The notes under the pieces: generated by a model
The model's input: the letters and a program-made list of their open reading frames with translations, nothing else
The model's database searches: none
Told to the model about the DNA's origin: nothing
DNA from: an uncultured Candidatus Saccharibacteria bacterium
GTDB lineage: Bacteria; Patescibacteriota; Saccharimonadia; Saccharimonadales; JAGQMS01
Length of the DNA stretch: 64,000 bases
Direction: 5' to 3'
NCBI GenBank assembly: GCA_964554485.1
Contig: CAZKOX010000002.1
Location: 21,146-85,145, forward strand
In this document: piece after piece, positions 3,307 through 48,102 of the stretch
Layout: each line of letters opens with the position of its first letter
How positions within the stretch are numbered: position 1 is the first letter of the stretch
Translations under genes and position numbers: made by a program

Positions 3307-3313
3307 CTCTCAA

Positions 3314-4624: not shown

Positions 4625-4660
4625 AGTAATTATTATGCGCCTTTTTTAGGGGCGAGTTAA

Positions 4661-6431: not shown

Positions 6432-6669
6432 GTTGTGGATAGACCGTTTACAAGTTTGTGGTTTATTTTTGTACAACTATGCTTGGTTATACCCAGTGTC
6501 CACAGTTTTATGGTTCACAAAAGCTTTGACTGATAGTTTGTACAAATTATCTACTCAGAGTTTACCCAGCATAATCCACTATGATTTTTCAAATTTAACA
6601 GGGGTTTTTGGTGTTTTATACCCACAATCCACAGAGCCTATAACTACTACTACACTTATATAAAGGAGA
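6432..6669. promoter_or_regulatory. oriC candidate, right part: DnaA-box cluster in the dnaA-dnaN intergenic region
   Basis: TGTGGATAG (CTATCCACA) at 6434-6442. GTGTCCACA at 6496-6504. TAATCCACT at 6572-6580. CAATCCACA at 6625-6633. AT-rich stretch at 6450-6480. Only a weak 79-aa ORF is present. Confidence 0.55.
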
Positions 6670-7773: not shown

Positions 7774-7801
7774 TAGACCGGTTATAGTCTAGAATAAACA
7801 C

Positions 7802-13900: not shown

Positions 13901-14282
13901 TATTTTCGAAAAAGTTTTCTAGTTTGAAAAGCCCCAAAAGTCCCGGTAGGAATGCAAGACCAGCAAGCAGCGACGGAATTCCGACTGCGGCAGCTGCAAA
14001 ACCAAGTTTTCTGCTCAGGCTGCCCTTGCTGAACATCTTCCCCTTGGACTTAGTATTACCATCGTCCTCAGAGTAATAATCTTTTAGCCTCTGGCTTACT
14101 GCCTTGTCCTCATCTAACTCTGCGTTCGCTTTATCTGCAAAGGGTTGAGATTTTTCATGAATTTTTGTGCCGTCGATGGCGTTATTTTCCATTTCGGCGA
14201 TTTCGTCCGGTGAAAAGCCACGCTCGGTTAATTCATCGAACTTTTCATCAATTTTTGACTGATCTTCCTCAGTGTCTAACAC
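10986..14282 (-). CDS. Giant membrane-anchored protein with a C-terminal LAS/M15-type zinc peptidase fold (cell-wall hydrolase-like)
   Basis: 1098 aa. Acidic cytoplasmic N-terminus and one TM (LGFAAAAVGIPSLLAGLAFLPGLLGLF). C-terminus has HPTGRAID (H-x6-D) and HWSHIHF (HxH) zinc-ligand motifs. Confidence 0.6.
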   Translation of the reverse strand: MLDTEEDQSKIDEKFDELTERGFSPDEIAEMENNAIDGTKIHEKSQPFADKANAELDEDKAVSQRLKDYYSEDDGNTKSKGKMFSKGSLSRKLGFAAAAVGIPSLLAGLAFLPGLLGLFKLENFFENTNASTFLRLNAAFDNRSDKWMKAYIKLRLAEYGGDIKTDNAVFRANRVDTNNPIRDWYTTMRTSKFEADLAKDGIVFESRTTDDGTISKLVVLRIDDKDVLSGISPKDVRDGKITEYINSGKFDGKIDDFFDDLDGSNKQSRARIKTIVNSRTKSWQVFQRRKIRKGLANMTGVSKWRLFETTRDRLDAKKKNLFDKIMVNVLPENRMGKFVACLFGAGDCPSATDPASSDSRNANTLGDASHIAADDSPTEAVNPDQVANPDGTYETATDLTPSSAANEITDAATAAATNAAGEVTEGAAKKELGKQIRDLIGKYLGNPYTKIWSYLKKLAKLDGVLSSNALGKLVVQGRRAQYMAAYASMAIAVSQMKSGDIAGTEGLPAITDEQANGFSSFAETVSTTVALRNSEVNEYMRYFDNAERSEAWMIFGGGKADAITKASAEGEDQGRNAYCDMTDAEKKLQPIYYQCYDDGLNGNNAEEMSKAYNNSIGKLLGPIADAVKAVDDSVFGTVFNWFSGVADGIVDKVVGPILNWVLETTGAGGAIEDIVTTGVVKAMEYAGAGVKYDPTIAGQMNYMMMGGAATAEASARNNGAAATSSYAYLRDYSNKMATDWQKEKDSNTSNWDRYASLSNPKSLASSMLMKLNTSTPGAAINSIANPINGLDNYANVLSGKALAEDTTTPSSVAEWSGLDTYDFPKECFDLDPLKPNYFENATNAPAGVTRDMATLGDSSIFWDAVYANLPGDASQKEAQAAAVYNCVLLDRSVMGGIGYAYGYSDDGGIGGEASSSTATTDNTPSVPVTGKVHAPYNMIFPGCIWDGTQPPEAITDKGKAQLGARELQVLINTKYGQGGLGPSWRCRDRGTKPDAHPTGRAIDSYFNSRKPEELSKGNNAMGWLITNADIFGIEYVKYWRLQWSKSKGYSCAPIQDHWSHIHFQVNWDGALRKTAYFTGAATPKDDTQHINQEICPLL

Positions 14283-14331
14283 TTGATTAGCTACCCTCTC
14301 GTTTCAAGATGTATTATAGCAAGTTCCGGCC

Positions 14332-16239: not shown

Positions 16240-17126
16240 TACATCGTCCCCTTTTCTAGATTTGGCTGAGGAGCCTGTCCGACGCCTTTAGTAATTACCG
16301 GTGCTGTTAAATCATCAAAATTCTTTAATTGCTGCCGCGTAGAAGTGTCGGGGTTGTAGGCATCATAATAAACTTCGATTAACTCCTGAGTATCAAGCGG
16401 CACTGCTCGGACTCCTGCTTGGGCAAGTCCAGAAACTACGGCCTGAGTATAATTGCGTAGTTCGGCTTTTGCTTTCTCGAGATCGCTCTCATTGATGGTG
16501 ACATGGTCGTTTTTCGCACCAAAAATATTACTAATAAAATTTCGACCGGCTTTTGCTACGGCTCCGGCGTTAGCGACAGGAAAATATGGAATAACCACAT
16601 AAAAACGCTTGTCCATAATATTCGCCTGCTCGGCGGTCTCGCTAATAAAGGCAATGTAATCTTCCATTAGTAGAGCAAGTAGCATGTTCTCGTGTTCAGA
16701 GCGGATTTTGTCGAGTTTTTCAATGTATGGCCGTAGATCTACGCGTTGCGATCGAATAAATATTTGAACTGGAAAATAAAGCATGTTCAAGAACCCTTGA
16801 AAAGCCAGCTCGACGCCGTCGCGCTCCTGGGGGCTCATGAGGTCAAAGTTAATACTCTTACACATCACCACAGCTCTAAAAGAACCATCGTTCATAATCA
16901 CAATTCCGTCACGAATTTCACTTATATTAAGGGTATTTTGGGTACTATTCGGATTACTTTTCGATTTGGTTGGAATTGGTGCATTTGCTGCCGGGGAAAC
17001 CGCCAATGGGTTAACGGCAGTGCCTACCGGAACTCCGGCCTGGCCTACATTTGGCTGTATTGGTGGTTGTGTATTTGGATCCATAATTTTTTCTGTTGGT
17101 TTTTGCCCTATTTCAGGGTGCCCCAC
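16239..17126 (-). CDS. T4SS-associated protein resembling the extreme N-terminal region of Gram-positive VirB4 (possible split VirB4)
   Basis: 295 aa. P/A/Q-rich N-terminus, then ISEIRDGIVIMNDGSFRAVVMCKSINFDLMSPQERDGVELAFQGFLNMLYFPVQIFIRSQ. Its stop overlaps the virB4 start (TAATG at 16237-16241). Confidence 0.45.
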   Translation of the reverse strand: MGHPEIGQKPTEKIMDPNTQPPIQPNVGQAGVPVGTAVNPLAVSPAANAPIPTKSKSNPNSTQNTLNISEIRDGIVIMNDGSFRAVVMCKSINFDLMSPQERDGVELAFQGFLNMLYFPVQIFIRSQRVDLRPYIEKLDKIRSEHENMLLALLMEDYIAFISETAEQANIMDKRFYVVIPYFPVANAGAVAKAGRNFISNIFGAKNDHVTINESDLEKAKAELRNYTQAVVSGLAQAGVRAVPLDTQELIEVYYDAYNPDTSTRQQLKNFDDLTAPVITKGVGQAPQPNLEKGTM

Positions 17127-17142
17127 CCCTTCTTAGAAGACT

Positions 17143-18231
17143 CTAGTGTAGTGAAATTACGTCATCCTGCTTCATTGCTGCCTCGCCTTCAGCATGTTTG
17201 GCGAGACTTTCGAGGCTTGATACATTCAATTCACTGCCACTTTGGCCCAACTTTTCTAGTATATCATCGGGGGCTCTACCTGCGGAGGGATTTAGGCTGG
17301 AAGCTTCTTGGGTTTGGCTGGTTGGAACGGCGCTAACAGGCTCGACTGTTTTGCCGTGTCCGTTGTTAGCCAAGTGCTTATTAAGTTCTTTGGTGGCGTG
17401 AATGTGACTCAAAAAATCAACTTCGTCGGCAGTTTGTGCAGAGGGCTGCTGTAGGAAACTGTCGGTTGGTTGTTTCTTGCCTGCTGGAGCGACGACCTGA
17501 GCGCCAAAAGTTGTATATCCGGGGTCTACGGGCGGCGCAGTAATAAACGAATAGTCTGCTTCTTCCGTGGGTGTCGGTGCTCTTCCGCTAGCTATATCTC
17601 TTAGTTTTGAGATATGTTCGGCGCGCTGTTCTTTAATAGCAGTATCAAACCGTTTTGCAACCATATTACTAACCGGGTCTAAAATGTCGTCGTCGTCACG
17701 TACATCTACATCAGGAACTTGCGCTACGGTCTCAATATCAAATAAACGGTCGGACGACGGAGCTACCCCGCCAAAACCAGCAGATGCAACATTTGGATTA
17801 AAGCTAATATTCTTAACTGCCCAGCCACGACTATCCATAGTGGCGCTAAGAGCTTTTAGTCGACTACTGACCTGAGTTTGATTTAGGCCCTTGGTTCGGA
17901 TAGCTTCAGCTTTTTTTGGTGCGGTAATAGTTACAAGCTCTGTCATGCCCGATTGATCCCAGTGGCGCTTTCTCGGTTTAATTAAAAATCGGATTCGCGC
18001 AGCAAGCCAAACGTCGTTTGGTTGGTCGCGACCAATTGGTGATGCCATAAACCCAAAAAACAAAATCGGTATCAGCCACGGCACCGCCAGGATGATGTTG
18101 ATTTTTCCGAACATAAAGGCGATGAATATAAAAACCAAAGTAACAATCGCAAAAATAAACTGCTTTAAGGTCAGCGGCCCAAGCAGCTTATCTTCGGCTT
18201 CGATGTCTTGAAGTACTTTATATGTTCCCAT
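17143..18231 (-). CDS. PrgI-family (VirB3-like) T4SS membrane protein with a long C-terminal extension
   Basis: 362 aa. N-terminus YKVLQDIEAEDKLLGPLTLKQFIFAIVTLVFIFIAF plus a second TM helix matches the PrgI/VirB3 pattern. Lies directly upstream of the VirB4 genes. Confidence 0.65.
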   Translation of the reverse strand: MGTYKVLQDIEAEDKLLGPLTLKQFIFAIVTLVFIFIAFMFGKINIILAVPWLIPILFFGFMASPIGRDQPNDVWLAARIRFLIKPRKRHWDQSGMTELVTITAPKKAEAIRTKGLNQTQVSSRLKALSATMDSRGWAVKNISFNPNVASAGFGGVAPSSDRLFDIETVAQVPDVDVRDDDDILDPVSNMVAKRFDTAIKEQRAEHISKLRDIASGRAPTPTEEADYSFITAPPVDPGYTTFGAQVVAPAGKKQPTDSFLQQPSAQTADEVDFLSHIHATKELNKHLANNGHGKTVEPVSAVPTSQTQEASSLNPSAGRAPDDILEKLGQSGSELNVSSLESLAKHAEGEAAMKQDDVISLH

Positions 18232-18249
18232 CGCTCATTATCCTTACCC

Positions 18250-21183
18250 CTAAGGCACTCTAGGGTCCTTCCATCCCCCAGAGCCCGCTCCAGCATGTGC
18301 TGCTTGAAGTATGTCTCTGGCATTACCTGAGAGCTGTGCGTTTCTATCTTCAAATATTTTTCTAGCTAATGCAGCGTCCGTGGTTAGTAGCGCCTTAACA
18401 TCTGAGTCCATAAAATCTGCAGTACCTGACACGGGATCGTACTTGGTCTTAATATTCGAAAAGTCTGCACCACTCATTGTGACTAGTTTTTCGCGAACAG
18501 CCTCTAGCGGTGTTAGTTGGCGTTTGCCACCAGGTGCGGCAGGGTCATCAACAACCTTTCGACCAACTTTTCTAGTTGCCGGATCATACTGAAGTGTACC
18601 AGCGCTTAGGTTGCCGGCTTTTCCAGATGCAGAAGCCGCTGCGCCAATTATTACATTTGCATTCGTTGGGTCGTTTTTGAATGCTTCAGCAACTGCGTCA
18701 AAGTGCGCCGACCCAGCTTGACCGCTGCCTGCGAGCCTTAATAAGGCAGCAGCTTGCGAGTTCCTGTCGCCGAGATGTGATTTTGCAAGAGACTCGGCTC
18801 TCGAAACTACCTGTTCTGTTTTAGCCGAGTCAAACGCCTTACCACTCGCCAAGGCAGCGGCCCTTTCCTGAGTTCTATATGCATTTGCCCCACCCGCTGC
18901 AATAACTTTCAAGACATCACTGTCTCCCCCGACCGTTGATTCGAGCTCTTTATCCGCGGTAGCTCTTGCCGCTGAGCTGGCTGTACTGAACAAAGCACTT
19001 CTGCTCTTTCCGCTAAAGCCCCCCGCCCGAAGTCGTCGATATGAACCGAGTCGACCGCCAGCTAGTCCAGCTGCAAAATCCTGTGTGCGCCTTTGAGTTC
19101 TAATAGTATCCCTCTGTTTTTTAGCAAGCTCCTTACTGCTAAGGGCTTTTCTTTTGTCTAAGCCACCACGAGCTTTGTCGAAAAGACCCTTGCCCTTATT
19201 GTTGACCATGCCTGTCAGGTTGCTAAATACCCCGCCGGCGGCTTTGAAGAGTGCCGGCAAGAAGAAATATGGTGCGACGTATGCGATAAGCGATATAGAA
19301 AATGCTAAGAAGTGATCAATAGTACTTTCTTCGCCCGCCGCTGACTGAGAAGTAATATATGCAAATATTTTTCCGGCTGCAAGTAGCCCCATTATCATTG
19401 GGTACATCAACAGTAATTTATTTAATGTACCAGACCATAGCTTCCACATTTTCTGGGTGTTCGGAAGAATCCACATTGCAAATCCAAGAGGAGCCATAAT
19501 AACTAAGAAAACAATAACTGCTTGGCGAAGGGCGAGGACAAATATAGCCACCAAAAAGGCAAACAACGCCGTGAGGCCTACGCCAAGTAACCCAAATACT
19601 CCTCCACCTAAAATTTCAGCAGTCGCAAGTCCTAAGAATATTGTTCCTGAAGTTCCGCCGTCTCCCGAGCCACCAGATGCAATACCTGCCATATTTTGTA
19701 GGCTAAAGTCTTTCGCCGCTTGAAACGGTGTTAGCATTATTCCTGCAATTCCTTTTCCAAGATCGTTCATAATGTCTATGTAGGTAGTAACTAAGGCCCA
19801 AGACAGCCAAATTCCTATAGCTCCGATTACAAGCCGCGGCAAGACTTTCTTAAGAGCGTACGGGCTTATTAGGTCGGACCCAAGAGCGGTTGATATAACC
19901 ATTACTAACGCAACGGCCACCAATATACCAGACGAAAACCTGGCAACTACTCGCCATGCTTCTTGAAGGCTGTCGCGTGTTTCTTGAGTCCCGAGATCAA
20001 CGGTTAGTTGATTAGAGATTGCGCGTTCTGCCCATTCTATAAAATTATCGATTATTCCAAGAACTGGACATAAGATCCAAGCTAAGGAATTTCTGAGCCC
20101 AGAGTAACAGTCATCTTTAACATCAGACTTCTCTAGTGCTCCCGGAGGGGGCGTCAAGTCCGTATCTTCACTACTTCCAGGCGTGACGGTATGTCTTTCG
20201 GGATGAGCCAATATTAGTCGATCGCCTTTATACTCGATAATATCCTCGCTACTATCTGGTTTTCGCTTTATGCCGGTATCTGGATATAAACACTTCGGGA
20301 CCTCAGTGTCGTTGGTGGCAATTGCATAAGTGCTGGTGGTGCCAGTCCCTCGGAATATGCTTGCGTTCACCATAGTGGCGTAATCATAATCACCCGGAGT
20401 GATTACTAGGTATGCGGTGGCTTCGGTGCCACTAAAACAGGCATCAGTCGTAAAGAATTCATATGGCTTATTCCCGGTTGAATTCAAAGATTTACCTAAA
20501 TTTTGCCAACTGTCCTGGATACCTTTTAGAACCTCGTCGGTTGGTTTAAATAAAGCCGTGTTAGTTCTGTACGAAACAAGGGTGTCGCTATTCTTCCACT
20601 GATATGGAGCATTTAGCTTTTCTAAGTTTTTTCCACTTATGTCCTCCGGTACGTCTAAAATATAATGCTGCGAATCATCCGGCGAATCACCGCTGCCCTC
20701 AATGTCGGTTGCACCTGCGACAACACATGATCCTCCGGACGGGCTATCAAGGGGCTGCACTAGCTTAACGTTCATGTCTGTCGAATCATCATTAAGATAA
20801 ATTACTATAATTCCGACGCACTTGTTGTTTGGGTCACGTTCTAAATAATTTCCGCCTGCGGCATCTACGGGTCGATAGTAGAAATGGTTGCCGTTGCCGT
20901 TCCAAAGAAAGGTATAGTCTTCATTCTTTTTGGTTATAACATCGGTGGTTTGATATAGAGTGCCGGCAGTATTGTCTTTGATGGTGTATGGATCAACAAA
21001 AGTGAATCGCCCAGCCCAACTCGTTGATTTAATATTGTTTTCTGCACCATTGACGCTGCGCCAGACAGTAATGTCGTTTTTCTCTTTTGCGGCTTCTGCA
21101 GCTTGCGGAACTAATACCGCCAAACCAGCTAATGCATTTAGTATGACAACGACCGCGAATAGTAAAGATCTCACCCTTTTCAT
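18250..21183 (-). CDS. VirB6/TrbL-like polytopic T4SS channel protein with a large N-terminal ectodomain and an Ala/Gly-rich C-terminal tail
   Basis: 977 aa. Signal peptide (LLFAVVVILNALAGLAVLVPQAAEA), a soluble region of about 350 aa, at least 6 hydrophobic helices between residues about 385 and 650, then a tail of about 330 aa. First gene of the operon. Confidence 0.6.
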   Translation of the reverse strand: MKRVRSLLFAVVVILNALAGLAVLVPQAAEAAKEKNDITVWRSVNGAENNIKSTSWAGRFTFVDPYTIKDNTAGTLYQTTDVITKKNEDYTFLWNGNGNHFYYRPVDAAGGNYLERDPNNKCVGIIVIYLNDDSTDMNVKLVQPLDSPSGGSCVVAGATDIEGSGDSPDDSQHYILDVPEDISGKNLEKLNAPYQWKNSDTLVSYRTNTALFKPTDEVLKGIQDSWQNLGKSLNSTGNKPYEFFTTDACFSGTEATAYLVITPGDYDYATMVNASIFRGTGTTSTYAIATNDTEVPKCLYPDTGIKRKPDSSEDIIEYKGDRLILAHPERHTVTPGSSEDTDLTPPPGALEKSDVKDDCYSGLRNSLAWILCPVLGIIDNFIEWAERAISNQLTVDLGTQETRDSLQEAWRVVARFSSGILVAVALVMVISTALGSDLISPYALKKVLPRLVIGAIGIWLSWALVTTYIDIMNDLGKGIAGIMLTPFQAAKDFSLQNMAGIASGGSGDGGTSGTIFLGLATAEILGGGVFGLLGVGLTALFAFLVAIFVLALRQAVIVFLVIMAPLGFAMWILPNTQKMWKLWSGTLNKLLLMYPMIMGLLAAGKIFAYITSQSAAGEESTIDHFLAFSISLIAYVAPYFFLPALFKAAGGVFSNLTGMVNNKGKGLFDKARGGLDKRKALSSKELAKKQRDTIRTQRRTQDFAAGLAGGRLGSYRRLRAGGFSGKSRSALFSTASSAARATADKELESTVGGDSDVLKVIAAGGANAYRTQERAAALASGKAFDSAKTEQVVSRAESLAKSHLGDRNSQAAALLRLAGSGQAGSAHFDAVAEAFKNDPTNANVIIGAAASASGKAGNLSAGTLQYDPATRKVGRKVVDDPAAPGGKRQLTPLEAVREKLVTMSGADFSNIKTKYDPVSGTADFMDSDVKALLTTDAALARKIFEDRNAQLSGNARDILQAAHAGAGSGGWKDPRVP

Positions 21184-21197
21184 ATATTAAGTAGGAT

Positions 21198-21237
21198 TAT
21201 ACAGGAGTACTACCGCGCGTGGTAGTACTCCTGTATA
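21198..21237. promoter_or_regulatory. 17-bp perfect inverted repeat (6-nt spacer) in the divergent promoter region between the T4SS operon and the pilin array
   Basis: TATACAGGAGTACTACC gcgcgt GGTAGTACTCCTGTATA. The left arm reads TATAAT on the minus strand (21195-21200) and the right arm contains TATACT on the plus strand (21233-21238). A -10-like hexamer for each direction therefore sits in or abutting an arm. Confidence 0.6.
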
Positions 21238-21254
21238 CTGGCTTGCAGATAATA

Positions 21255-21635
21255 ATGAACAAAAAAGTATTTTCACTAATATTGTCAGGGTTCTTTGTAG
21301 CACAAATATTTTGTGGTTTTTGCCTACCTTCAGTCAGCGCCCAAAACGAAAATGGCAGCAGTACTGGCGGAACTGTAGTTTTTGAAACCGATGAAGATGG
21401 AAAGAAGGTGCAGGAGTATTTGCAGAGCGGCATTAACTTGCTAACCGGCCTGGCCGGGTTGGCAATAACTGCTTCAGTAATTATTGGCGGTATTCAATAT
21501 TCAACATCTGGCGGCAACCCTCAAGCAGCGTCGGCCGCCAAAAAACGTATTAGTAATGCTTTTTTAGCGCTTCTGGCTTTGGTTTTCTTATATACTTTCT
21601 TGCAATGGATAGTTCCAGGTGGAGTATTTGGTTAA
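21255..21635 (+). CDS. VirB2/TrbC-like T4SS pilin paralog 1
   Basis: Probable start is MNKKVFSLILSGFFVA (the track ORF starts at a GTG at 21219 inside the palindrome). Signal peptide, then two hydrophobic helices flanking IGGIQYSTSGGNPQAASAAKKRI. Confidence 0.7.
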   Translation: MNKKVFSLILSGFFVAQIFCGFCLPSVSAQNENGSSTGGTVVFETDEDGKKVQEYLQSGINLLTGLAGLAITASVIIGGIQYSTSGGNPQAASAAKKRISNAFLALLALVFLYTFLQWIVPGGVFG

Positions 21636-21639
21636 ATAT

Positions 21640-22128
21640 ATGAAGAAGATAATATTTACTTTAATGTTAGTAGTATCAGTTGCTGGGATATTTAATTTCC
21701 AGACTGCCAGTGCATCCCATGGCGTACCACCGACAGGTAATTGCAAAAAATCTTTTCTTGGTCTCCCGGCCTGGTACGAGTACCTCGAAGTAGATCCAGT
21801 CACCTGTAGTGTCAATGGGCCTCATGAAACCGTAGTTGACGACAAGAGTACGGCTGATACATCTGACGATACAAGCCACGATAGATTAGTAGTGTCGGCC
21901 ATAGTCACTCGAGTTGCGCTCGCAGTTATCGACATACTGATGCGGGTTGGCGGTATGGTGGCCTTTGGTTTTCTTGTCTATAGCGGTTTTAAATTTACCT
22001 TATCTCAGGGCAACTCTGATCAAGAAAAATCTGCCCGAGAAACAGCTATTAATGCCGTAATCGGCATGGTGATTACTATCTTTGCAATCGGCATCGTAAC
22101 CTTTATAGGAAATAGGATTTCATCGTGA
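21640..22128 (+). CDS. VirB2/TrbC-like T4SS pilin paralog 2 (divergent, longest variable region)
   Basis: Start MKKIIFTLMLVVSVAG (track start 21619). Cys pair (GNC..VTC). C-terminal two-helix core around YSGFKFTLSQGNSDQEKSARETAI. Confidence 0.6.
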   Translation: MKKIIFTLMLVVSVAGIFNFQTASASHGVPPTGNCKKSFLGLPAWYEYLEVDPVTCSVNGPHETVVDDKSTADTSDDTSHDRLVVSAIVTRVALAVIDILMRVGGMVAFGFLVYSGFKFTLSQGNSDQEKSARETAINAVIGMVITIFAIGIVTFIGNRISS

Positions 22129-22406
22129 ATATATTTGCCCAAATAATATTTAAGTACGAAGGCCCAAAAGCGCTTGAAGAGAGCGGCAAAGGCAGTACTT
22201 TAATGGCGATTTTATCTATTGCTTTTGGGGTACTTGGAGGCATTAGCCTGCTGGTAATAGTTATTTCAGGTATGCGATTAACATTATCGCGCGGTAATCC
22301 TGATGCTCTTGCGAAATTACGGAGCACAATTATCTATGCCGCGGTCGGTCTTGCTGTCGCGCTCAGCGCAACGGCGATTATTCAATTTGTAGTAAACAGA
22401 GTTTAA
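22125..22406 (+). CDS. VirB2/TrbC-like pilin paralog 3 (short form, no obvious signal peptide)
   Basis: 93 aa. GTG start overlaps the previous stop (GTGA). Core ISGMRLTLSRGNPDALAKLRSTIIYAAVGLAVALSATAIIQFVVNRV. Confidence 0.55.
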   Translation: MNIFAQIIFKYEGPKALEESGKGSTLMAILSIAFGVLGGISLLVIVISGMRLTLSRGNPDALAKLRSTIIYAAVGLAVALSATAIIQFVVNRV

Positions 22407-22409
22407 GAA

Positions 22410-22784
22410 ATGAAGAGATTAATAATATTTTTAACCGCAATTTTTTCGCTCTGCTTCCCTGTTGGCGTTTTGGCGGCAACTCCGAATGAATCAATTGATT
22501 GTAGCGGAGCTTCAAATTCTGTGTTCTGCCAAGAACGAAACGTCAGCGGTAACCCGCTATTTGGACAGAGCGGAGTATTAACTAAAGCCACTCAGGTTAT
22601 TGTCGTAATCACGGGACTAATATCGGTGTTTATTATGATCATCGCGGGCCTACGTTTTATAACTTCAGGCGGTGACCCTGGCAAGGTAGAGTCTGCAAAA
22701 AACGCTATTTTATATTCCTCTATCGGAATTGCTGTGGCGCTTTCTGCGCAAGCGATTGTGAGCCTGGTACTAAATAACTTATAA
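22410..22784 (+). CDS. VirB2/TrbC-like T4SS pilin paralog 4
   Basis: 124 aa. Signal peptide, Cys pair (DCSGASNSVFC), core AGLRFITSGGDPGKVESAKNAILYSSIGIAVALSAQAIV. Confidence 0.75.
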   Translation: MKRLIIFLTAIFSLCFPVGVLAATPNESIDCSGASNSVFCQERNVSGNPLFGQSGVLTKATQVIVVITGLISVFIMIIAGLRFITSGGDPGKVESAKNAILYSSIGIAVALSAQAIVSLVLNNL

Positions 22785-22794
22785 TGAAGGATAT

Positions 22795-23181
22795 ATGAAA
22801 AGATTATTTATTATTCTTGCCGTCGCCATGTCCTTGTTCGGCTTTGTGTTAGCGCCGACAACTACTGTGCTGGCTGATTCAAAAAATGATGTTTGTGATG
22901 GAGTCGGCGCGGCTTCTGGTGGTAGTGGTTGTACTCCAACGGACGGTGTTACAGACCTAAACAAGGTTATTAAAACCGCTATTCGAATTTTTGAATCTGT
23001 GGTTGGTATTATTGCACTTATCATGATGGTTACTGCCGGACTTCGTTTTGTAACATCTAGCGGTGACTCCGGAAAGGTAACTTCTGCAAGGAACACGCTA
23101 CTATACGCAGCTATCGGTATTGTTGTCGTAGCGCTTTCAGAAATAATTATTCAGTTTGTGCTAAACCGCGCGACTACTTGA
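22795..23181 (+). CDS. VirB2/TrbC-like T4SS pilin paralog 5
   Basis: 128 aa. Signal peptide, Cys pair (VCDGVGAASGGSGC), core AGLRFVTSSGDSGKVTSARNTLLYAAIGIVVVALSEIIIQFVLNR. Confidence 0.75.
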   Translation: MKRLFIILAVAMSLFGFVLAPTTTVLADSKNDVCDGVGAASGGSGCTPTDGVTDLNKVIKTAIRIFESVVGIIALIMMVTAGLRFVTSSGDSGKVTSARNTLLYAAIGIVVVALSEIIIQFVLNRATT

Positions 23182-23236
23182 GCAAACACCTTAAGGTATG
23201 GTATAAAATCAATATAAGAATCTAAAAAGGAATAAA

Positions 23237-23659
23237 ATGAAAAAACTAAAACTATTTTTTGTAAGCATCCTGGCGCTATTTAGCCTAAGCCCTGCACTAA
23301 TGCCAGTTATGGCATCGGCTACTTCTAGCGCCGATAATCTTGCATGCGGCGTATCTGGTGACATTGCCGGTACGACCCAATGTGATGCAACAGACACAAA
23401 AGATGCCGATAATCGAGTTAATGGCATTATTGCTGCAGCTATTCGTATCTTTCAGGTAGTTGTTGGTCTGATCTCGGTCATTATGATCATTATGGGTGGT
23501 CTTAAGTACATCACTTCTGGTGGCGATGCCTCAAGTGTTGGTAGTGCTAAGAATACTATTCTCTACGCAATGGTTGGTATCGTAGTTGTGGCGCTTGCTG
23601 AGATAATCGTACAATTTGTGCTAAATCGTGCATCTAATGCCGGCACCGGCACCTTCTAG
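23237..23659 (+). CDS. VirB2/TrbC-like T4SS pilin paralog 6
   Basis: 140 aa. Signal peptide, Cys pair (ACGVSGDIAGTTQC), core GGLKYITSGGDASSVGSAKNTILYAMVGIVVVALAEIIVQFVLNR. Confidence 0.75.
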   Translation: MKKLKLFFVSILALFSLSPALMPVMASATSSADNLACGVSGDIAGTTQCDATDTKDADNRVNGIIAAAIRIFQVVVGLISVIMIIMGGLKYITSGGDASSVGSAKNTILYAMVGIVVVALAEIIVQFVLNRASNAGTGTF

Positions 23660-23690
23660 TCCACGAATCCTGCGCCGTCAATCTAAAAGT

Positions 23691-23712
23691 CCCAGCCAAG
23701 CTGGGCTTTTTT
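23691..23712 (+). terminator. Intrinsic terminator after the pilin array
   Basis: CCCAGC caa GCTGGG followed by CTTTTTT. Confidence 0.6.
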
Positions 23713-23716
23713 GATG

Positions 23717-23846
23717 CCTCTTGGCTATTTTCAGTCTATTCGGTCCAGTACTCTCCGCTGTACAGCGGATCTACGTACATTCGTACGTCTCGTTCCGTCC
23801 TTCCCGAATATGCCGAAACTACCTCAAGCGCAGAATCCGTGGGGTG
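23717..23846. repeat. Intergenic structured repeat, copy A (core module only, with an extra CCGCTGTACAGCGG hairpin)
   Basis: Shares CTTGG(C/T)(C/T)ATTTTCAG .. GTCCAGTACTC .. ACGTAC-n-GTACGTC .. TCCGT(G/C)CTTCC .. CCGAAACT(G/-)ACCT(A/C)AG(C/T)GCA with copies at 26664-26819 and 48103-48260, all in the same orientation. Confidence 0.7.
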
Positions 23847-23863
23847 AAGTTCTTAAAACAAAT

Positions 23864-23891
23864 AAAAACTCCCGCGTGTGCGGGAGTTTTT
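23864..23891. terminator. Bidirectional intrinsic terminator (serves hsp20 on the minus strand)
   Basis: AAAAA CTCCCGC gtgt GCGGGAG TTTTT, with an A-run and a T-run on either side. Confidence 0.65.
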
Positions 23892-23906
23892 ATAATCAAG
23901 CTAGAT

Positions 23907-24401
23907 TTACTGAACTTGGATTTTTCGTACCGTGTCTTGCTTAACTTTAGTAAAGGTAATTGTAAGAACACCTTCTTTTAGTGAGGCGTCGATCTCATCT
24001 TCTTTAACTGGTACCGGCAAGGCTACGCTGCGGCTAAATTCACCCCAGTAGCATTCTTGCATGAAGTAATTCTGGACTGCTTCTTCTGTTCCGGCAGATA
24101 ATGTGCCGCGAATCGTTAGAGTGCCGTCTGAAAAGCTTACATCTAGGTCAGACTTGTTGACACCAGCAGTGCGTGCCTTCACAACCAACTTATCGGCTGT
24201 TTCATAAACATCTAAAGCTAGTTGTCCTGGTAGCTGCTGACCGTCGTCGTCCCAGTCGCTTTGGCTACTTGCAGCCGGAGCGTCGCCTGGTGATACAACT
24301 TCGTCCTCACCCAAAAATGCAGCACTAAGTTCTTCTTCTAGTAATAAATCATCGTTATCGTTGTCTCTTCGAGCCATAGTAGTTCCCCTCCACTTACTCA
24401 T
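23907..24401 (-). CDS. Hsp20/alpha-crystallin small heat-shock protein
   Basis: 164 aa. LALDVYETADKLVVKARTAGVNKSDLDVSFSDGTLTIRG and a C-terminal GVLTITFTK pattern. Confidence 0.85.
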   Translation of the reverse strand: MSKWRGTTMARRDNDNDDLLLEEELSAAFLGEDEVVSPGDAPAASSQSDWDDDGQQLPGQLALDVYETADKLVVKARTAGVNKSDLDVSFSDGTLTIRGTLSAGTEEAVQNYFMQECYWGEFSRSVALPVPVKEDEIDASLKEGVLTITFTKVKQDTVRKIQVQ

Positions 24402-24499
24402 TCAAATAAAATTTGATTTTTGTGTTAGCTGTATTATAGCTATGGTTGTACCCTGTTAGCAATCAAATCTATAGTTATTCACAACATAAGTTTTACAAC

Positions 24500-25165
24500 A
24501 TGCTATTACTTCATAAGATCATATCTGTTATTTCGCCAGAAACCTGTATTGTCTGCGACGACGAAGGTTGGCTATTATGTGACGCTTGCGCCTATTCAGA
24601 GGTACCTTTTGTCGCCTCAACTTGCTATTCTTGCGGCGAAATAACAAATAATTTTGCAACATGTAAGAAATGTCTGCGCAAATCTCCCCTTTCAAGCGTC
24701 TGGATAGTTACAAGATATGACGCTACTGCAAAGAAGCTTGTCGGAGAACTAAAATTTAATTCACGCCGCGGAGGTGCCGAGCCGATAGCAAGGCTATGCA
24801 ATAAAGTTTTGCCGCTACCAGACAATAGTCTTGTCACTCACCTTCCAACAAGTTCTTTTCATATTCGGCAGCGCGGTTTTGATCAATCAAAGTTAATAGC
24901 CAAAAAATTAGCTCATAGGAAGTACAATTATGCGCCGCTGCTGAGGCGAGTAAAAAAGATTCATCAAATCGGCGCTAACAAGAAGCAGCGTCAAGAACAG
25001 TTGGCCGGCGCTTTCGTAGCAGTGAACAAATATTTGATAAGAAATTCCAAGATATTGCTGGTTGATGACGTTGCTACCACTGGCGCGAGCCTAGAAGAAG
25101 CTGCGCGAACATTAAAAAAGGCTGGCGCTAAAGAAGTATCAGCGGTTGTCTTTGCCAGAACCTAG
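24500..25165 (+). CDS. comF: ComF-family protein (zinc-finger plus phosphoribosyltransferase domain)
   Basis: CIVCD..CDAC and CYSCG..CKKC cysteine pairs. C-terminal ILLVDDVATTGASL PRTase motif. The track ORF begins at a TTG at 24446; the ATG at 24500 is more plausible. Confidence 0.75.
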   Translation: MLLLHKIISVISPETCIVCDDEGWLLCDACAYSEVPFVASTCYSCGEITNNFATCKKCLRKSPLSSVWIVTRYDATAKKLVGELKFNSRRGGAEPIARLCNKVLPLPDNSLVTHLPTSSFHIRQRGFDQSKLIAKKLAHRKYNYAPLLRRVKKIHQIGANKKQRQEQLAGAFVAVNKYLIRNSKILLVDDVATTGASLEEAARTLKKAGAKEVSAVVFART

Positions 25166-25172
25166 AAGTAGT

Positions 25173-25340
25173 TGGCGGAAGAGGTGGGGTAATGCACATC
25201 AATCTGTGCGCCGAGCTTCTCGGGCAACAGACTGATGACCGAACCGCATTGGGTTCTAATCCCATTCTTTCAGTAGAAAGACTATGACCGATACCCTTTA
25301 GGTTCGGACATACTCTTCCTGGCGGAAGAGGTGGGGTTCG
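25173..25340 (-). repeat. Two tandem direct repeats of the tRNA-Ser(CGA) 3' end, bracketing a 147-nt tRNA-end-flanked segment
   Basis: TGGCGGAAGAGGTGGGGT at 25173-25190 (18 nt) and TGGCGGAAGAGGTGGGGTTCG at 25320-25340 (21 nt) are identical to tRNA positions 25491-25511. ACTCTTCC at 25312-25319 copies the tRNA 5' acceptor half. Confidence 0.7.
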
Positions 25341-25490
25341 CCTTTTTGACTTGAAGTCAAAAACCCCACGCTCCGCCGACCGGCGGATCTAGGGGCTTCG
25401 GGACCGGGGTTTGCTACAAGCAAACTCGTTCGAGCCCCTCATATTCATAATCCTCCATAGCTATGGTCTCAAGACCAAAGCTATGGAGGA

Positions 25491-25581
25491 TGGCGGAAGA
25501 GGTGGGGTTCGAACCCACGTTGGTTTTTACACCAAACACGATTTCGAATCGTGCGCCTTCAACCAGCTCAGCCACTCTTCC
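25491..25581 (-). tRNA. tRNA-Ser (anticodon CGA), class II, CCA encoded
   Basis: Manual fold: acceptor GGAAGAG/CTCTTCC, anticodon arm CACGA-TTCGAAA-TCGTG, long variable arm, T arm GTGGG-TTCGAAC-CCCAC, then GCCA. Confidence 0.85.
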
Positions 25582-25663
25582 TCGATTAAGCATTGTAACA
25601 GATTGAATAAAAAGTTGTCTCGTGGTACTATCACCCCTGTTCCTTTACGTACTATATTTTTAT

Positions 25664-25740
25664 GTACCCGTAGCTCAGCTGGATAGAGCGTTGGCTTGCG
25701 GAGCCAAAGGTCGTAGGTTCGAATCCTGTCGGGTACACCA
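25664..25740 (+). tRNA. tRNA-Arg (anticodon GCG by manual fold), CCA encoded
   Basis: Acceptor GTACCCG/CGGGTAC, D arm GCTC-AGCTGGATA-GAGC, anticodon arm TTGGC-TTGCGGA-GCCAA, T arm GTAGG-TTCGAAT-CCTGT (two G-U pairs), then ACCA. Confidence 0.8.
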
Positions 25741-25746
25741 TTATTT

Positions 25747-26073
25747 ATGACAATAAAATTTCATCGTAAATAAGTTCGGGATAATATCCCAGAGATTATT
25801 AGAGCGAATGGCGCAAAGCCGGATTTTCGTGTTATCACCGATAATTTCGAGTATCTCGAAGCACTTACAGCAAAGCTAGTCGAGGAAACACACGAAGTCG
25901 TTAAAGATCCTAGCCTCGAAGAACTAGCCGATGCATTCGAAGTTATTCGCGCTATTGCCATTGCTCTTGGATATACTCCTGAAGAACTTGAAGCGGCTCG
26001 AGCCCAAAAAGCCGAAGAGCGTGGTGGCTTCGAAGGCCGTGTATGCTTAATTTCTACCGAAGAGAGTCATTAG
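25747..26073 (+). pseudogene. MazG-like all-alpha NTP pyrophosphohydrolase gene interrupted by an in-frame TAA at codon 9
   Basis: Manual translation: MTIKFHRK*VRDNIPEIIRANGAKPDFRVITDNFEYLEALTAKLVEETHEVVKDPSLEELADAFEVIRAIAIALGYTPEELEAARAQKAEERGGFEGRVCLISTEESH. The TAA (25771-25773) sits where I expect a Leu codon (TTA), judging from a remembered K-L-V-R-D-x-I-P pattern in this family. There is no in-frame ATG/GTG/TTG downstream. Confidence 0.6.
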
Positions 26074-26627
26074 AAGTGGATGCGGTGGAGGAACTTGTCG
26101 ATAAGGCCTGGTTCGTGGTTTTCGAAAGGCACAAAAGCGCTAAGTGTATCAATAATTTTTTCGCCGTCATCTGGTGCAAAATAAACGCTCAGTGGTGGAG
26201 CCCAGCGTTTAGTTGGCAATAATATTATGCTTTCGATAGGTCCTTCACTAACAACCGCAAACGATCGAAACTCTTCATAAGGGGCATATCGTTCGCCGAC
26301 AGTAATCCCGGCACCACCAATACTATATTCTAGTACTCTAGGCTTTCGAGCAGCTCCAACACCAAAGATGAATGCTAAAATCGCGATTATAACGGTGGCG
26401 AATATGTCTCGGGTTAATAAATAAACCACAGCAGCAATTACTAAACCAGCACCAGCCAGACCTAAAAACCAGCCCGAAGTCTTTTGGTGATCAATAAATT
26501 CTGATGCTGTCCATCTTATTTCTACCGGTTCTTCCGCTGCTTGAAGTTCGGGCGTACGCTGCGTGCTGGAGTAGTCGGCCGTGGCATCAGGACGGTCGTA
26601 AAGTTGTTTTTCGCTGTCACTATCCAT
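26070..26627 (-). CDS. Hypothetical two-TM membrane protein
   Basis: The track ORF starts at a TTG at 26654; the ATG at 26627 (MDSDSEKQ) is more likely. TM pair is WFLGLAGAGLVIAAVVYLL and IFATVIIAILAFIFGVGA. No family recognised. Confidence 0.5.
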   Translation of the reverse strand: MDSDSEKQLYDRPDATADYSSTQRTPELQAAEEPVEIRWTASEFIDHQKTSGWFLGLAGAGLVIAAVVYLLTRDIFATVIIAILAFIFGVGAARKPRVLEYSIGGAGITVGERYAPYEEFRSFAVVSEGPIESIILLPTKRWAPPLSVYFAPDDGEKIIDTLSAFVPFENHEPGLIDKFLHRIHF

Positions 26628-26663
26628 AAGCCTTATTGTAGCATCACCACACAATTTGCATCA

Positions 26664-26819
26664 GCTAAGCCTGCTCTTTGGCGGAGCCAAAGACACCGCT
26701 TAGCTTCTTGGCCATTTTCAGTCCTTGAAGTCCAGTACTCGCATCAACGTACTATTTGTACGTCTTGCTCCGTGCTTCCTTCAAGTACCGAAACTGACCT
26801 AAGTGCAAAATGCGTGGGC
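26664..26819. repeat. Intergenic structured repeat, copy B (5' hairpin module plus core module)
   Basis: Outer stem GCTAAGC (26664-26670) / GCTTAGC (26698-26704). Inner hairpin CTTTGGC-GGA-GCCAAAG (26676-26692). The core is as in copies A and C. Confidence 0.7.
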
Positions 26820-26875
26820 TAAATAATAAAGACTTCATTTTTAAGAGGTCATGAGATAATATAGTCCGGAAGCAC

Positions 26876-26970
<95 letters not shown>

Positions 26971-26990
26971 TTGCTTTTAATTTATGTTCT

Positions 26991-27080
26991 GGAGAGGTGA
27001 CCGAGTGGTTTAAGGTACTTGTCTTGAAAACAAGCGTGCCTGCAAGGGTACCGTGAGTTCGAATCTCACCCTCTCCGCCA
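26991..27080 (+). tRNA. tRNA-Ser (anticodon TGA), class II, CCA encoded
   Basis: Acceptor GGAGAGG/CCTCTCC, anticodon arm CTTGT-CTTGAAA-ACAAG, long variable arm, T arm GTGAG-TTCGAAT-CTCAC. Confidence 0.85.
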
Positions 27081-27202: not shown

Positions 27203-28309
27203 TTACTGAATTTTTGGAACTGGCTTCGACTCTTTTGGTTTTTCTTCAACTGGAGCTGGGTGCTCTGGTTCTTTATTTTCAATATCCTCAGCTTCCGGGT
27301 TCTTTTTCTTCTGGGTGATGTAAATCACAGCGAAGATTACAGATACAGCAATATATATCCCACCGAATATCATGTTCCATTTTCCGGTCGAAGAACTTAC
27401 TTCTCGAATAAGTGGGAATAGAATATTTTCGGCAAGACCGTTATCGCCACCACCTGCGGTGCGTTCAAGAATACTTTCCCTTAGCAAAATACTTGTCCCG
27501 CCGAAGAGCAATAATAAGCCTCCGACGATACCGAAGAACCAGCTCAAAATCTTAAATCCATTACGTTTTGGTCGACACAAGACAACAATAAGCGCTGAGT
27601 TTATAGCAACCAGAATTGCTAACAAAACAGGAGAACTTCTTAACCAACCGAATATCCTCGGTGCGTTTGAAAAAGCCTCATCAATCGGCTTGTTTTGGCC
27701 GCCAAAATCTAGTTTGACGTCTTCGTTACTTAGCGTGGTGTCGGGCAAGACATCCTGACTGCTAGCAATCTCAGACTTAAACTGTTCAATTTGAGCACTT
27801 GCGTCAGCTCCTGACGGCAAACAGGTTGCCGAGAACGGATCAAATTCTTCCATACTTTCGCCACTCTGACAGGCTGGCAAGCTGGCTACTCTGGCAAGTC
27901 CTTCGACGCCAAGGGCGTCAATAAAAGCCTGTTTTTCTTCATTAAAGTCTAGGTTAAAAACTAGAGTGTCGGTCTTCCCTTCTAACCAGTTGTAGGCACT
28001 GTCAAGAACTGTTTCAACATCTTCTTTTAGTGTTGTCGGTGGAAAGGCTTTTTTGGCAGCTCGAGTTAGGGCGTCGACGTCAAAACCGCCTTCCGGATTT
28101 TCGCCACCTCGGTTGGTTTGATCCTGCTTAACTAGGTTAGCTAGTTCAGTAACAAAATTGTCATAAACCTTACTTTCATTCAACCAGGTTTTTGTAACTT
28201 CACGATCGAGGATTGTCATTCGAGCTGTCCAAATTCCAGCGTTAAGAAATATTAGTCCGCCAAAACCAAGCACTAATAAGGATAAAAATATTTTTCTTAA
28301 GGTATTCAC
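27203..28309 (-). CDS. Hypothetical polytopic membrane protein
   Basis: 368 aa. N-terminal TM, a large extracytoplasmic segment, three to four C-terminal TM helices and a charged KPKESKP tail. Confidence 0.5.
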   Translation of the reverse strand: MNTLRKIFLSLLVLGFGGLIFLNAGIWTARMTILDREVTKTWLNESKVYDNFVTELANLVKQDQTNRGGENPEGGFDVDALTRAAKKAFPPTTLKEDVETVLDSAYNWLEGKTDTLVFNLDFNEEKQAFIDALGVEGLARVASLPACQSGESMEEFDPFSATCLPSGADASAQIEQFKSEIASSQDVLPDTTLSNEDVKLDFGGQNKPIDEAFSNAPRIFGWLRSSPVLLAILVAINSALIVVLCRPKRNGFKILSWFFGIVGGLLLLFGGTSILLRESILERTAGGGDNGLAENILFPLIREVSSSTGKWNMIFGGIYIAVSVIFAVIYITQKKKNPEAEDIENKEPEHPAPVEEKPKESKPVPKIQ

Positions 28310-28351
28310 TACCTTCTATTGTACTACTGCTTAACGAGTTACAATATACCT

Positions 28352-34031: not shown

Positions 34032-35126
34032 TTATGATGCTAGCATCTTTAGGCTAGGTTGAATCTCTAGAGTGTATGGATCCGCCGTCTCTGTTTTTAA
34101 CAAAACTTTAAAGCAACCAAGGGTCGCAACCATGGCGGCGTTGTCGGTGCAAAGTTTTCGGTCTGTGTATTCGATACCAACTGGTAAACGAGAGGCTAGT
34201 TGATGTCTGAGTTCATCGCTAGCTGCCACGCCACCAGCGATAATAACAGAGGCGGGTAGGTATTGTTTGTATGCAAGAACGGTTTTGTCTACGATAGTCT
34301 CGATTGCTATACGCTGAAAACTAGCAGCTATATTAGCCTTCTGAGCCTCAGAAAGTAGCCCAGGAAGCTCGGTTGAGGACAATGTGTGGTTATGACCGGT
34401 TAGACCTTGCGCGGTGCGTAAGACGGCTGTTTTGAGCCCAGAGAACGAAAAATTAAAATCACCAGAGACCTGAGCTTTAGGGAAGTTGAAGGCGTAGGCG
34501 TCGCCAACCTTGGCTTTTTCGGCGACGGATGGGCCACCGGGGTAGGGCAGACCGATCATTTTAGCGACCTTGTCGAAAGCCTCACCTATGGCATCATCTT
34601 GAGTTTTGCCTAGGATTTGATAGTTAAAGTGGTCTTTAAAGAGGACTAGTTGGGTGTGTCCACCAGATACGATTAGTGTCAAAATTGGGAACTTTGGTGC
34701 TGAAGCAGGCAGTTTGAACTTAGAAGATAGGGAAGGGGAGGTTTCGGTGATGAAGTTGGCGTATACGTGCGCTTCAACATGATTGATTGCGTATAAGGGT
34801 TTATTTAAGGCGATGGCTAGAGATCGAGCCGTCATAACACCGACGAGCAGAGATCCGCCCAAACCGGCGCCGTAAGTTACGGCAATTGCATCTATATCAT
34901 CCTTGGTTTGCGAAGCTTCGCGTAGGGCTTCATCTATAACAGGGATAATGGCTTCGATATGGCTTCGAGCGGCAACTTCCGGAACTACGCCACCGTAGGC
35001 TTTATGGATATCAATCTGACTAACGACGGTATTGCTAAGTAGACGACAAACTTGCGTTTGCTCGTCTATTTCAACAACCGCTGCGGCTGTCTCGTCGCAA
35101 CTAGTTTCTATTCCTAAAACTTTCAT
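34032..35126 (-). CDS. tsaD: tRNA N6-adenosine threonylcarbamoyltransferase TsaD (Kae1/Gcp family)
   Basis: 364 aa. MKVLGIETSCDETAAAVV, HIEAII, VSGGHTQL motifs. Confidence 0.9.
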   Translation of the reverse strand: MKVLGIETSCDETAAAVVEIDEQTQVCRLLSNTVVSQIDIHKAYGGVVPEVAARSHIEAIIPVIDEALREASQTKDDIDAIAVTYGAGLGGSLLVGVMTARSLAIALNKPLYAINHVEAHVYANFITETSPSLSSKFKLPASAPKFPILTLIVSGGHTQLVLFKDHFNYQILGKTQDDAIGEAFDKVAKMIGLPYPGGPSVAEKAKVGDAYAFNFPKAQVSGDFNFSFSGLKTAVLRTAQGLTGHNHTLSSTELPGLLSEAQKANIAASFQRIAIETIVDKTVLAYKQYLPASVIIAGGVAASDELRHQLASRLPVGIEYTDRKLCTDNAAMVATLGCFKVLLKTETADPYTLEIQPSLKMLAS

Positions 35127-46753: not shown

Positions 46754-46852
46754 TCCGTAATTATAACTTAGACGTTGTAATTTACTCAAAGTCATTAGTA
46801 GTCGCAGGCTCTCACTCTGGCGTCTGTTGATTTTTTTGCCGACAAACACTTA

Positions 46853-48082: not shown

Positions 48083-48102
48083 TTCTCCACACCTCCCGCG
48101 CC

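Follow-up and report, generated by a model that had tools for sequence, protein, structure and literature searches.

Introduction

What kind of sequence recurs three times, in one orientation, along 64,000 nucleotides of an uncultured Candidatus Saccharibacteria genome? The stretch in question (positions 21,146 to 85,145 of contig CAZKOX010000002.1, assembly GCA_964554485.1; hereafter the window) carries three copies, A, B and C, of a structured repeat. An initial annotation, made from the letters alone, regarded the repeat as an unclassified family that could be a small RNA, a modular mobile repeat of the BOX or MITE (miniature inverted-repeat transposable element) type, or a protein-binding DNA element, with a hint of tRNA ancestry. 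The analysis described here upholds a mobile repeat with a conserved fold, but not the tRNA ancestry or the plus-strand orientation. The family probably consists of small, non-autonomous structured insertion elements of about 171–186 nt, specific to Saccharibacteria (Saccharimonadales) and comparable to the Rickettsia palindromic elements (RPE) and the ERIC (enterobacterial repetitive intergenic consensus) sequences.

The Repeat Unit and its Fold

The three copies lie where they had been predicted, share one orientation, and contain all of the sequence blocks quoted for them (CTTGGnnATTTTCAG, GTCCAGTACTC, ACGTAC..GTACGT, TCCGTnCTTCC and CCGAAACT). The intervals of 130–160 nt assigned to them were correct in location but not in length, as an outer helix, P0, lies beyond both interval ends. 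With boundaries set by alignment with the empty sites of relatives, the complete units measure 173–186 nt: copy C occupies 48087–48259 (173 nt), copy B 26644–26820 (177 nt) and copy A, a member of a second subfamily, 23660–23845 (186 nt), all on the minus strand. A covariance model run with filters off matched these same three copies in the window (165.5, 164 and 139.9 bits, respectively), and a hidden Markov model built from the three copies likewise matched just these three.

On the minus strand of the window, the unit folds as a three-way junction composed of P0, a long rod (P1, P2, core and P3) and a side hairpin, P4. P0 is a helix of 13–16 bp formed by the two ends of the unit, such as CCACGCCUUCUGCGC with GCGCGGGAGGUGUGG in copy C, where the 5′ arm (CCACGCCUUCUGCGCU) lies at 48241–48256 and its partner, which includes GGAGG, at 48087–48102. 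The rod of the same copy (48148–48238) comprises P1, P2, a purine-rich core (GGAAGCACGGAAC / GUGAGUACUGGAC) and an apical P3 hairpin, and P4 (48103–48143) consists of an outer and an inner stem with the loop UCC. The 13-bp closing helix proposed earlier is real and corresponds to P1, and the compensated differences noted between the side hairpins of B and C are correct (CTTTGGC/GCCAAAG against CTTTAGC/GCTAAAG, and GCTAAGC/GCTTAGC against GGCTAGC/GCTAGCC). Two other structural claims did not hold. The alternative pairing AGTAC..GTACT is not conserved, since P3 becomes GTGTAGG..CTAC in other copies and GAGTACTGG is invariant, and copy A, thought to lack the side module, has its own version in the form of a terminator-like hairpin at 23691–23705. 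Among the window copies, A alone also has an extra 16-nt hairpin (UCCGCUGUACAGCGGA) beside P3, at 23754–23769, and the P3 hairpins of the window copies contain ACGT/GTAC palindromes.

The full units have minimum free energies of −87.1 (C), −82.0 (B) and −77.9 kcal/mol (A), with z-scores against shuffled sequences of −8.6, −7.5 and −7.2, respectively. For copy C, the plus strand reaches −67.8 kcal/mol in comparison to −87.1 kcal/mol for the minus strand; the orientation assumed at first is the weaker-folding strand.

Filled and Empty Sites in Close Relatives

All three window copies are insertions, and close relatives hold clean empty sites. Orthologous loci in relatives (designated L followed by a number, as are the other related loci below) were reached through homologues of the window ABC ATPase and Hsp20, and filled as well as empty counterparts were found for every window copy. 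The insertion boundaries coincide with the foot of P0. The site of copy C is empty in L028, L029 and L030 (ATPase 89% and 83% identical), where the ATPase stop codon overlaps the permease start codon (..AAGAAATGA..), and filled in the window and in L031 (95% identical); the insert is exactly 173 nt (CTTCCACGCC...GGAGGTGTGG) between ..CCAAAG and AGAAATGA.., and no flank is duplicated. For copy B, the empty sites of L032 and L036 read ..CTTTATTATTT-GCAA-TGCTACAATAAAGCTTATGG.., the site is filled in L034, and the window holds 177 nt between TTATTATTT and TGCTACAAT. Copy A lies between AAGAACTTC and the stop codon of a pilin-like gene, and the corresponding spacers in L032 and L033 are 63 nt long, with no content other than the common terminator and a small palindrome.

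The copy A spacer is filled or rearranged in three other relatives. In L034 (2408–2751), with the same left junction, it holds a composite of three elements, of which one is complete, one is truncated in the P4 loop and one is a fragment of 34 nt. The truncated copy was apparently cut by the insertion of another element, and the fragment and window copy A have identical P0 5′ arms. The spacer of L036 contains a degenerate copy with the same right junction, and that of L035 an inverted copy at a different point. Opposite orientations are also found in L002 and L014, which carry the element in the same stop-to-stop spacer.

The element enters new sites without target duplication or a common target sequence. 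Compared with the empty sites, none of the flanks (ccaaag|..|agaaat for C, ttattt|..|tgctac for B and aacttc|..|ctagaa for A) is duplicated, so that the target-site duplications looked for are absent at the three window junctions, and the four defined junctions share no flank motif on either strand. Copies in spacers are often flush against start or stop codons, and the neighbouring genes are unrelated between copies. A TA target duplication was considered, as stop codons often abut the ends, yet the three defined junctions carry no duplication. The possibility that P0 is an inverted copy of the target flank, suggested by the L028 site, was rejected on the basis of the clean empty sites for C and B, and one further candidate for an empty-site pair, L002b, was unusable owing to a scaffold gap flanked by duplicated sequence.

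Two other polymorphisms were observed at these loci. In L028 (3018–3193), a divergent element absent from the window lies between the stop codons of the permease gene and of a convergent PGI-like gene. A 20-nt stretch after the permease stop codon in the window (TAAGTGTTTGTCGGCA, 46832–46852) is common to the P0 3′ arm of that element and is possibly, on weak grounds, what remains of a copy since lost; the stretch could instead be flank common to both loci. Additionally, L032 (5382–5696) contains a gene for a GIY-YIG nuclease of 104 residues between a HIT-family gene and the gene of a 369-residue membrane protein. As the same two genes are 10 nt apart in the window (about 28309–28319), the nuclease gene looks like another insertion polymorphism and is possibly mobile.

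A Family Held Together by Covarying Helices

Public collections were scanned for exact matches to two core blocks, which gave copies from five Saccharibacteria/Patescibacteria metagenome-assembled genomes (MAGs) and 14 metagenome contigs, and none from viral contigs. Eight more copies came from loci retrieved later, for a total of about 32. Wherever the host taxon is given, each of the roughly 30 copies beyond the window is on a Saccharibacteria/Patescibacteria contig. The density is three copies in 64 kb here and four on three small contigs of one MAG. Six loci (L008, L009, L010, L015, L017 and L019) proved to be chance pattern matches without the rod fold. Rfam 15 searched over the whole window at gathering scores returned five tRNA genes only, and over 23650–26860 at E-values up to 10 nothing meaningful overlapped the elements. 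No report of this element family was found in the literature either; it is a previously unlisted repeat family, real and well supported.

RNAalifold assigns 58 pairs to an alignment of 18 distinct copies, and 38 of these show compensatory changes. Standard pairs make up 94.0% of the cells, compared with 77.0% in shuffles and 33–40% when the partner is slid by 1–3 columns, and the cells changed on both sides number 188, compared with 60.5 in shuffles and 25–50 after the same slides. Any of the observed covariation values was reached by 0 of 500 shuffles, and the compensated pairing first noted in two copies is thereby confirmed on a wider alignment. The covarying helices are P0, P2, P3 and P4. 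In P0, 11 of 13 pairs undergo double changes across copies, the pairing being kept and the sequence not. Four of the RNAalifold pairs fall within the core and nearly never vary, and thus give no evidence for or against their own pairing.

The same alignment contains 79 G-U cells and 21 A-C cells. One and the same strand gives a fold of equal or greater stability in all 18 copies, with differences of up to 27 kcal/mol, and this preference also holds for copies that are antisense to both of their neighbours (L001 and L004). Together, the excess of G-U and the fold energies indicate that the folding strand corresponds to the minus strand of the window. The structure was derived on the favoured strand, which biases it somewhat toward that strand, while the energy differences are independent of that choice.

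Sequence identity is 79% between B and C, 59–62% between A and either of these, and 71–72% between A and the copies in L001 and L006. Two P4 subfamilies occur within one genome, and in one of them P4 is terminator-like. There are also mosaics: the copy in L005 combines the rod of L002a with a P4 of the B/C type. Some variants carry an extra hairpin of about 60 nt, located at the same point of the P1 3′ strand in two loci (L012a, L012:8447–8688, and L024:2491–2733) and in the P2 5′ strand in a third (L014:2672–2855); these hairpins may mark either an expanded subfamily or the nested insertion of another small palindromic element. A rod-only variant, L026:2968–3092, has the same core, its own closing helix and an intrinsic-terminator hairpin immediately after it, and lacks the arrangement of P4 within P0. 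This layout resembles that of a stand-alone small RNA (sRNA) gene and could represent an ancestral or master form. Among the natures first proposed for the repeat, the modular mobile one is strongly supported by the filled and empty sites of all three window copies, and further by nested and tandem insertions, inverted, rod-only and mosaic copies, and copies in frame within genes.

Copies Inside Genes

In related genomes, the element interrupts conserved protein-coding genes without closing their reading frames. In glmS (L007/L021), 171 nt are inserted in the sense orientation and in frame, such that query residues 57–118 stand opposite residues 58–67 of the Escherichia coli protein. In a gene for a TylF-like methyltransferase (L016/L027), also in the sense orientation, residues 72–137 stand opposite residues 98–106 of PDB entry 5i10. 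In tsaD (L032, 141–318, and L033), the copy is antisense and in frame, with about 55 extra residues, and the uninterrupted tsaD of the window (34032–35126) has a 14-residue loop at that point. The intragenic copies lengthen their proteins by about 55–57 residues. Furthermore, a PilX-like gene appears to start inside a copy, and several genes end inside one, including the ABC ATPase of the window and an open reading frame (ORF) in L006, presumably a methionyl-tRNA synthetase gene judging from its N-terminal sequence. The claim that the element is non-coding stands for the window copies but not elsewhere, where copies are read through in frame within real genes. An intron, raised as a possibility by the glmS copy, was rejected, as all three interrupted genes (glmS, tsaD and the methyltransferase gene) can be read across the element in an open frame without a change of phase; for introns and ribozymes more broadly, no Rfam family of any kind matched the regions searched.

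The Conserved Core and a Candidate Protein Partner

The helices of the element drift through compensatory change, and the core stays nearly invariant. Variation is lowest in segments that are unpaired or irregular, namely AGGAAGCACGGAAC (5′ strand) and GAGUACUGGAC (3′ strand), and the unpaired core GGAAGCACGGA / GAGUACUGGAC is nearly invariant among copies that are just 55–80% identical overall. Read 5′ to 3′, both strands of the core have the form GA-N5-GGA, giving three purine-rich internal loops around a short helix in a pseudo-twofold arrangement. In the divergent members L013b, L028 and L012b, the apical half of the core is best kept. The combination GAGUAC/GGAAC presumably fits the bulged-G (sarcin-ricin/loop E) consensus AGUA/GAA. 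The invariant core of all copies also contains a 6-bp DNA palindrome, AGTACT, for example at 48171–48176.

The conserved core together with the strand-specific fold points to a single-stranded intermediate and a protein partner. The selected form would be single-stranded, most likely RNA, and the core would be where a protein acting in trans, probably as a dimer, binds so as to mobilise or process the element. RNA is weakly favoured over single-stranded DNA (ssDNA), as intragenic and leader copies are mostly in the mRNA sense, the folding strand would serve as template for the leading strand if the replication origin is near dnaA (about 5 kb), and no Y1/HUH gene was seen in the window. A more specific version, in which the element is a mobile or domesticated RNA module whose core docks a dedicated Saccharibacteria protein and which spreads via an RNA or single-strand intermediate without target duplication, is tentative and, on present evidence, somewhat doubtful.

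Several observations weigh against the interpretation of the family as non-autonomous insertion elements. Neither transposase nor reverse-transcriptase nor recombinase domains were detected in the 27 window ORFs scanned, and no autonomous parent element is present in the sequence examined. The conservation of the core exceeds the expectation for decaying selfish DNA, and between L002 and L014 the rod is 97.5% identical while the flanking genes are 75–86% identical; gene conversion or a role in the host may lie behind this. Lastly, a profile of the element-encoded peptide found no match among 5.8 billion proteins, indicating that translated copies are rare or poorly sampled.

Alternative Explanations

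The selected fold could instead be that of ssDNA, moved by an HUH/Y1 transposase, as in IS200/IS605- or REPIN/RAYT-like systems, or by a recombinase that acts on folded ssDNA, as at integron attC sites. Insertion without target-site duplication, ends that conserve structure rather than sequence, strand-specific pairing with tolerated G-T pairs, and the single orientation of all three window copies would be expected of such a system. However, no conserved tetra- or pentanucleotide adjoins either end, no Y1 or HUH gene lies in the window, and the elements form no cassette arrays. IS200/IS605 elements prefer the lagging-strand template, whereas an origin near dnaA/dnaN (about 5 kb) would make the folding strand here the template of the leading strand, an argument drawn from three copies only. 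Movement as ssDNA is thus considered unlikely. An integron attC site in the strict sense was rejected, as the copies are not arrayed and have housekeeping genes on their flanks.

Another reading holds that the element is a host-functional structured RNA in the first place, whether as an sRNA in multiple copies, as a leader or processing site acting in cis, or as a sponge that titrates an RNA-binding protein, with dispersal being secondary. The near-invariant unpaired core, the strand-specific fold of every copy, the rod that is better conserved than its flanking genes at one orthologous site, the sRNA-gene-like layout of L026 and the position of copies B and C directly upstream of start codons all agree with this view. 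On the other hand, close relatives differ in whether they carry each window copy, glmS, tsaD and the methyltransferase gene harbour copies in frame and in both orientations, some copies are truncated, nested or degenerate, the neighbouring genes share no function, and no consistent promoter precedes the copies. A primary host function therefore appears quite unlikely. A riboswitch or leader in particular, considered as copies B and C precede start codons, was rejected in view of copy A, the copies within genes, the lack of relation among neighbouring genes and the polymorphic insertions. Other candidates were examined and rejected: a retron or diversity-generating retroelement, given that there is no reverse transcriptase in the window and no adenine-specific variation; a hammerhead-like motif (CGAAAC), which lacks a CUGANGA box; and signal recognition particle RNA, as its 7-mer GGAAGCA stands here in the wrong context and Rfam gives no match.

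Descent of the side hairpin (P4, the 5′ module in the orientation first adopted) from the anticodon arm of a tRNA had been suggested by a 12-mer in common with the nearby tRNA-Arg(GCG). The 12-mer is indeed shared, although it lies at 25698–25709 rather than 25699–25710, and allowing one mismatch it has three matches in the window in comparison to 0.34 expected. However, two of these three are element copies themselves, and the match is exact in copy B only, with one mismatch in copy C. The P4 stems differ freely among about 30 copies, which have only the tip GGC-UYY-GCC in common; the better-folding strand carries the complement of the tRNA sequence; ARAGORN and Rfam detect nothing tRNA-like in the element; and the copies compared retain no cloverleaf remnants. 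The match is treated as a coincidence, and tRNA ancestry is regarded as highly improbable.

The view that the element is a coding module selected for the peptide ..LELVSV..GSTEQ.V.KYG.ASTGL.KPKIAKK.. is close to refuted: in several copies no stop codon interrupts this sense frame from one end of the element to the other, and both glmS and the methyltransferase gene use it, but it carries stop codons in most copies, including all three of the window, the differences between copies preserve base pairs and not codons, the tsaD copy is read in an antisense frame, and the peptide profile has no protein matches.

Comparison With Known Repeat Families

The closest parallel to these non-autonomous insertion elements is found in Rickettsia. 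RPE are sequences of about 100–190 bp in reduced genomes, with ends that pair and a long stem-loop; they comprise several families, occur both in spacers and in frame within conserved housekeeping genes, and their mobilising enzyme is not known (Ogata et al. 2000, reviewed in PMC2229807, PMC10969869). The element described here resembles RPE in its size, end pairing, long stem-loop, dispersed copies, in-frame gene copies and subfamilies, and in residing in a small reduced genome. The resemblance is at the level of class only: the phylum is different and there is no known sequence relationship. Unlike RPE, which form a simple hairpin, the present element is a three-way junction with a side hairpin, and its purine-rich core is nearly invariant. 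Target duplication, listed as unknown for RPE, is absent at three sites here, and intragenic copies appear rarer (about 4 of about 32, compared with nearly half in some RPE families).

ERIC sequences, also termed intergenic repeat units (IRU), are imperfect palindromes of 127 bp in enterobacteria that are co-transcribed with their neighbours and affect mRNA stability depending on orientation (PMC2229807). Insertion in either orientation and fusion in frame to ORFs are shared with the present element (PMC2229807), but ERIC has TA termini and a target-site duplication, and lacks a conserved internal-loop core and a branched fold. The features that characterize the RPE/ERIC class (PMC2229807), that is, the size and end-paired fold, dispersed copies, in-frame ORF fusions and filled versus empty sites, were all found.

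Other families are more distant. Classical MITEs (Correia/NEMIS, RUP) are likewise dispersed non-autonomous elements of small size whose terminal inverted repeats form a fold in RNA, but these repeats are conserved, match those of a parent insertion sequence (IS) and are accompanied by TA duplications. A classical MITE was rejected since there is no target duplication, the terminal helix covaries (11 of 13 pairs), neither a parent IS nor any longer element with the same ends was seen in the sequence examined, and no transposase domain was found in the window. REPIN/RAYT systems and the palindrome-associated transposable elements (PATE) derived from IS200/IS605 share the lack of target duplication, structure-defined ends and strand-specific hairpins, but insert by a fixed short target, need a Y1 transposase and have ends that are unpaired with each other; with no fixed target of 4–5 nt at the four junctions and no Y1/RAYT gene in the window, these were also rejected. 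The BOX elements of Streptococcus pneumoniae have a comparable modular build (here rod, P4 and P0, with mosaics and rod-only forms) and a stable RNA fold in spacers. In contrast, BOX elements have no sequence similarity to the present element, have their modules in a linear order (A-Bn-C), and are not known from in-frame positions within enzyme genes.

Predicted Local Effects and Neighbours in the Window

The three insertions of the window are predicted to affect their neighbours in different ways. Copy A lies between the convergent genes of a type IV secretion system (T4SS) pilin-like protein (stop codon at 23657–23659) and of Hsp20, the latter with its own terminator (23862–23893). A terminator scan reports the tip of its P4 (23691–23705) on both strands; read on the plus strand, this is a canonical intrinsic terminator (CCCAGCCAAGCTGGG CTTTTTTG), 32 nt past the stop codon of the pilin-like gene, to which the copy may thus supply a new terminator hairpin.

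Copy B is 17 nt upstream of the start codon of a 185-residue ORF (26070–26627), just downstream of the promoter-like −10 hexamer TATTAT (26823–26828; the −35/−10 pair ends at 26823), and 55 nt from a tRNA-Ser(GCU) gene on the opposite strand. The native sequence beside it, TGCTACAAT, could itself be an extended −10 element. Copy B would form either the first 177 nt of the mRNA or a segment just upstream of the promoter, placing a structured segment of 177 nt at or just upstream of the mRNA 5′ end.

Copy C lies between the genes of an ABC-transporter ATPase and its permease, where a gap of 94 nt replaces the overlap of stop and start codons. The ATPase ORF (48177–49064, minus strand) reaches its stop codon, a TGA at 48177, only after crossing P0, P1, P2, the core and P3, so that its last 28 codons and the stop codon are inside the copy. 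In relatives without copy C, the ATPase ends in an ATGA overlap with the permease start. Judged from these sequences, the insertion probably broke the overlap and gave the ATPase a 28-residue tail encoded by the element. The GGAGG of the P0 3′ arm, 10 nt upstream of the permease ATG (48082), is a likely ribosome-binding site of the permease that would be covered by P0 pairing. With GGAGG inside this arm, translation of the permease may depend on ribosomes opening the element.

The ORFs of the window are those of housekeeping genes and a T4SS-like cluster. The region 2189–8872 looks like the chromosomal origin region: judging from N-terminal sequences, its minus strand presumably carries rnpA- and yidC-like genes, and its plus strand dnaA (5076–6431), dnaN and recF. 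The conjugation/T4SS-like cluster (9637–23659) includes a 977-residue TrbL-like protein and PrgI-, TraC- and TraG-like genes. It ends in six small tandem genes (21219–23659) whose counterparts in relatives mostly match the T4SS_pilin family; in the window, the scan for this family covered the last tandem gene. The tRNA genes of the window (25491–27080 and 49133–49222) encode four tRNA-Ser (CGA, GCU, UGA and GGA) and tRNA-Arg(GCG), and at other loci tRNA genes show no consistent adjacency to the element.

Implications for Saccharibacteria

Insertion without duplication, covarying ends and an invariant core are in combination unexplained by known transposition mechanisms, and point to a factor that mobilises or binds the element. 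If the core does dock a dedicated protein, ultra-small bacteria would possess a mobile RNA element or a regulatory system of a new, structure-dependent kind. For practical purposes, the covariance model can be of use in the annotation of MAGs, in which copies bear on gene ends, split or extended ORFs and assembly breaks, and the elements themselves serve as strain-level insertion markers. The genomes of Saccharibacteria are among the smallest and most streamlined of bacteria, yet they tolerate an element of about 175 nt, under strong structural constraint, at the borders of genes and even inside essential enzyme genes. The presence of selfish DNA within coding sequences, a phenomenon familiar from Rickettsia, is hereby extended to the Patescibacteria.

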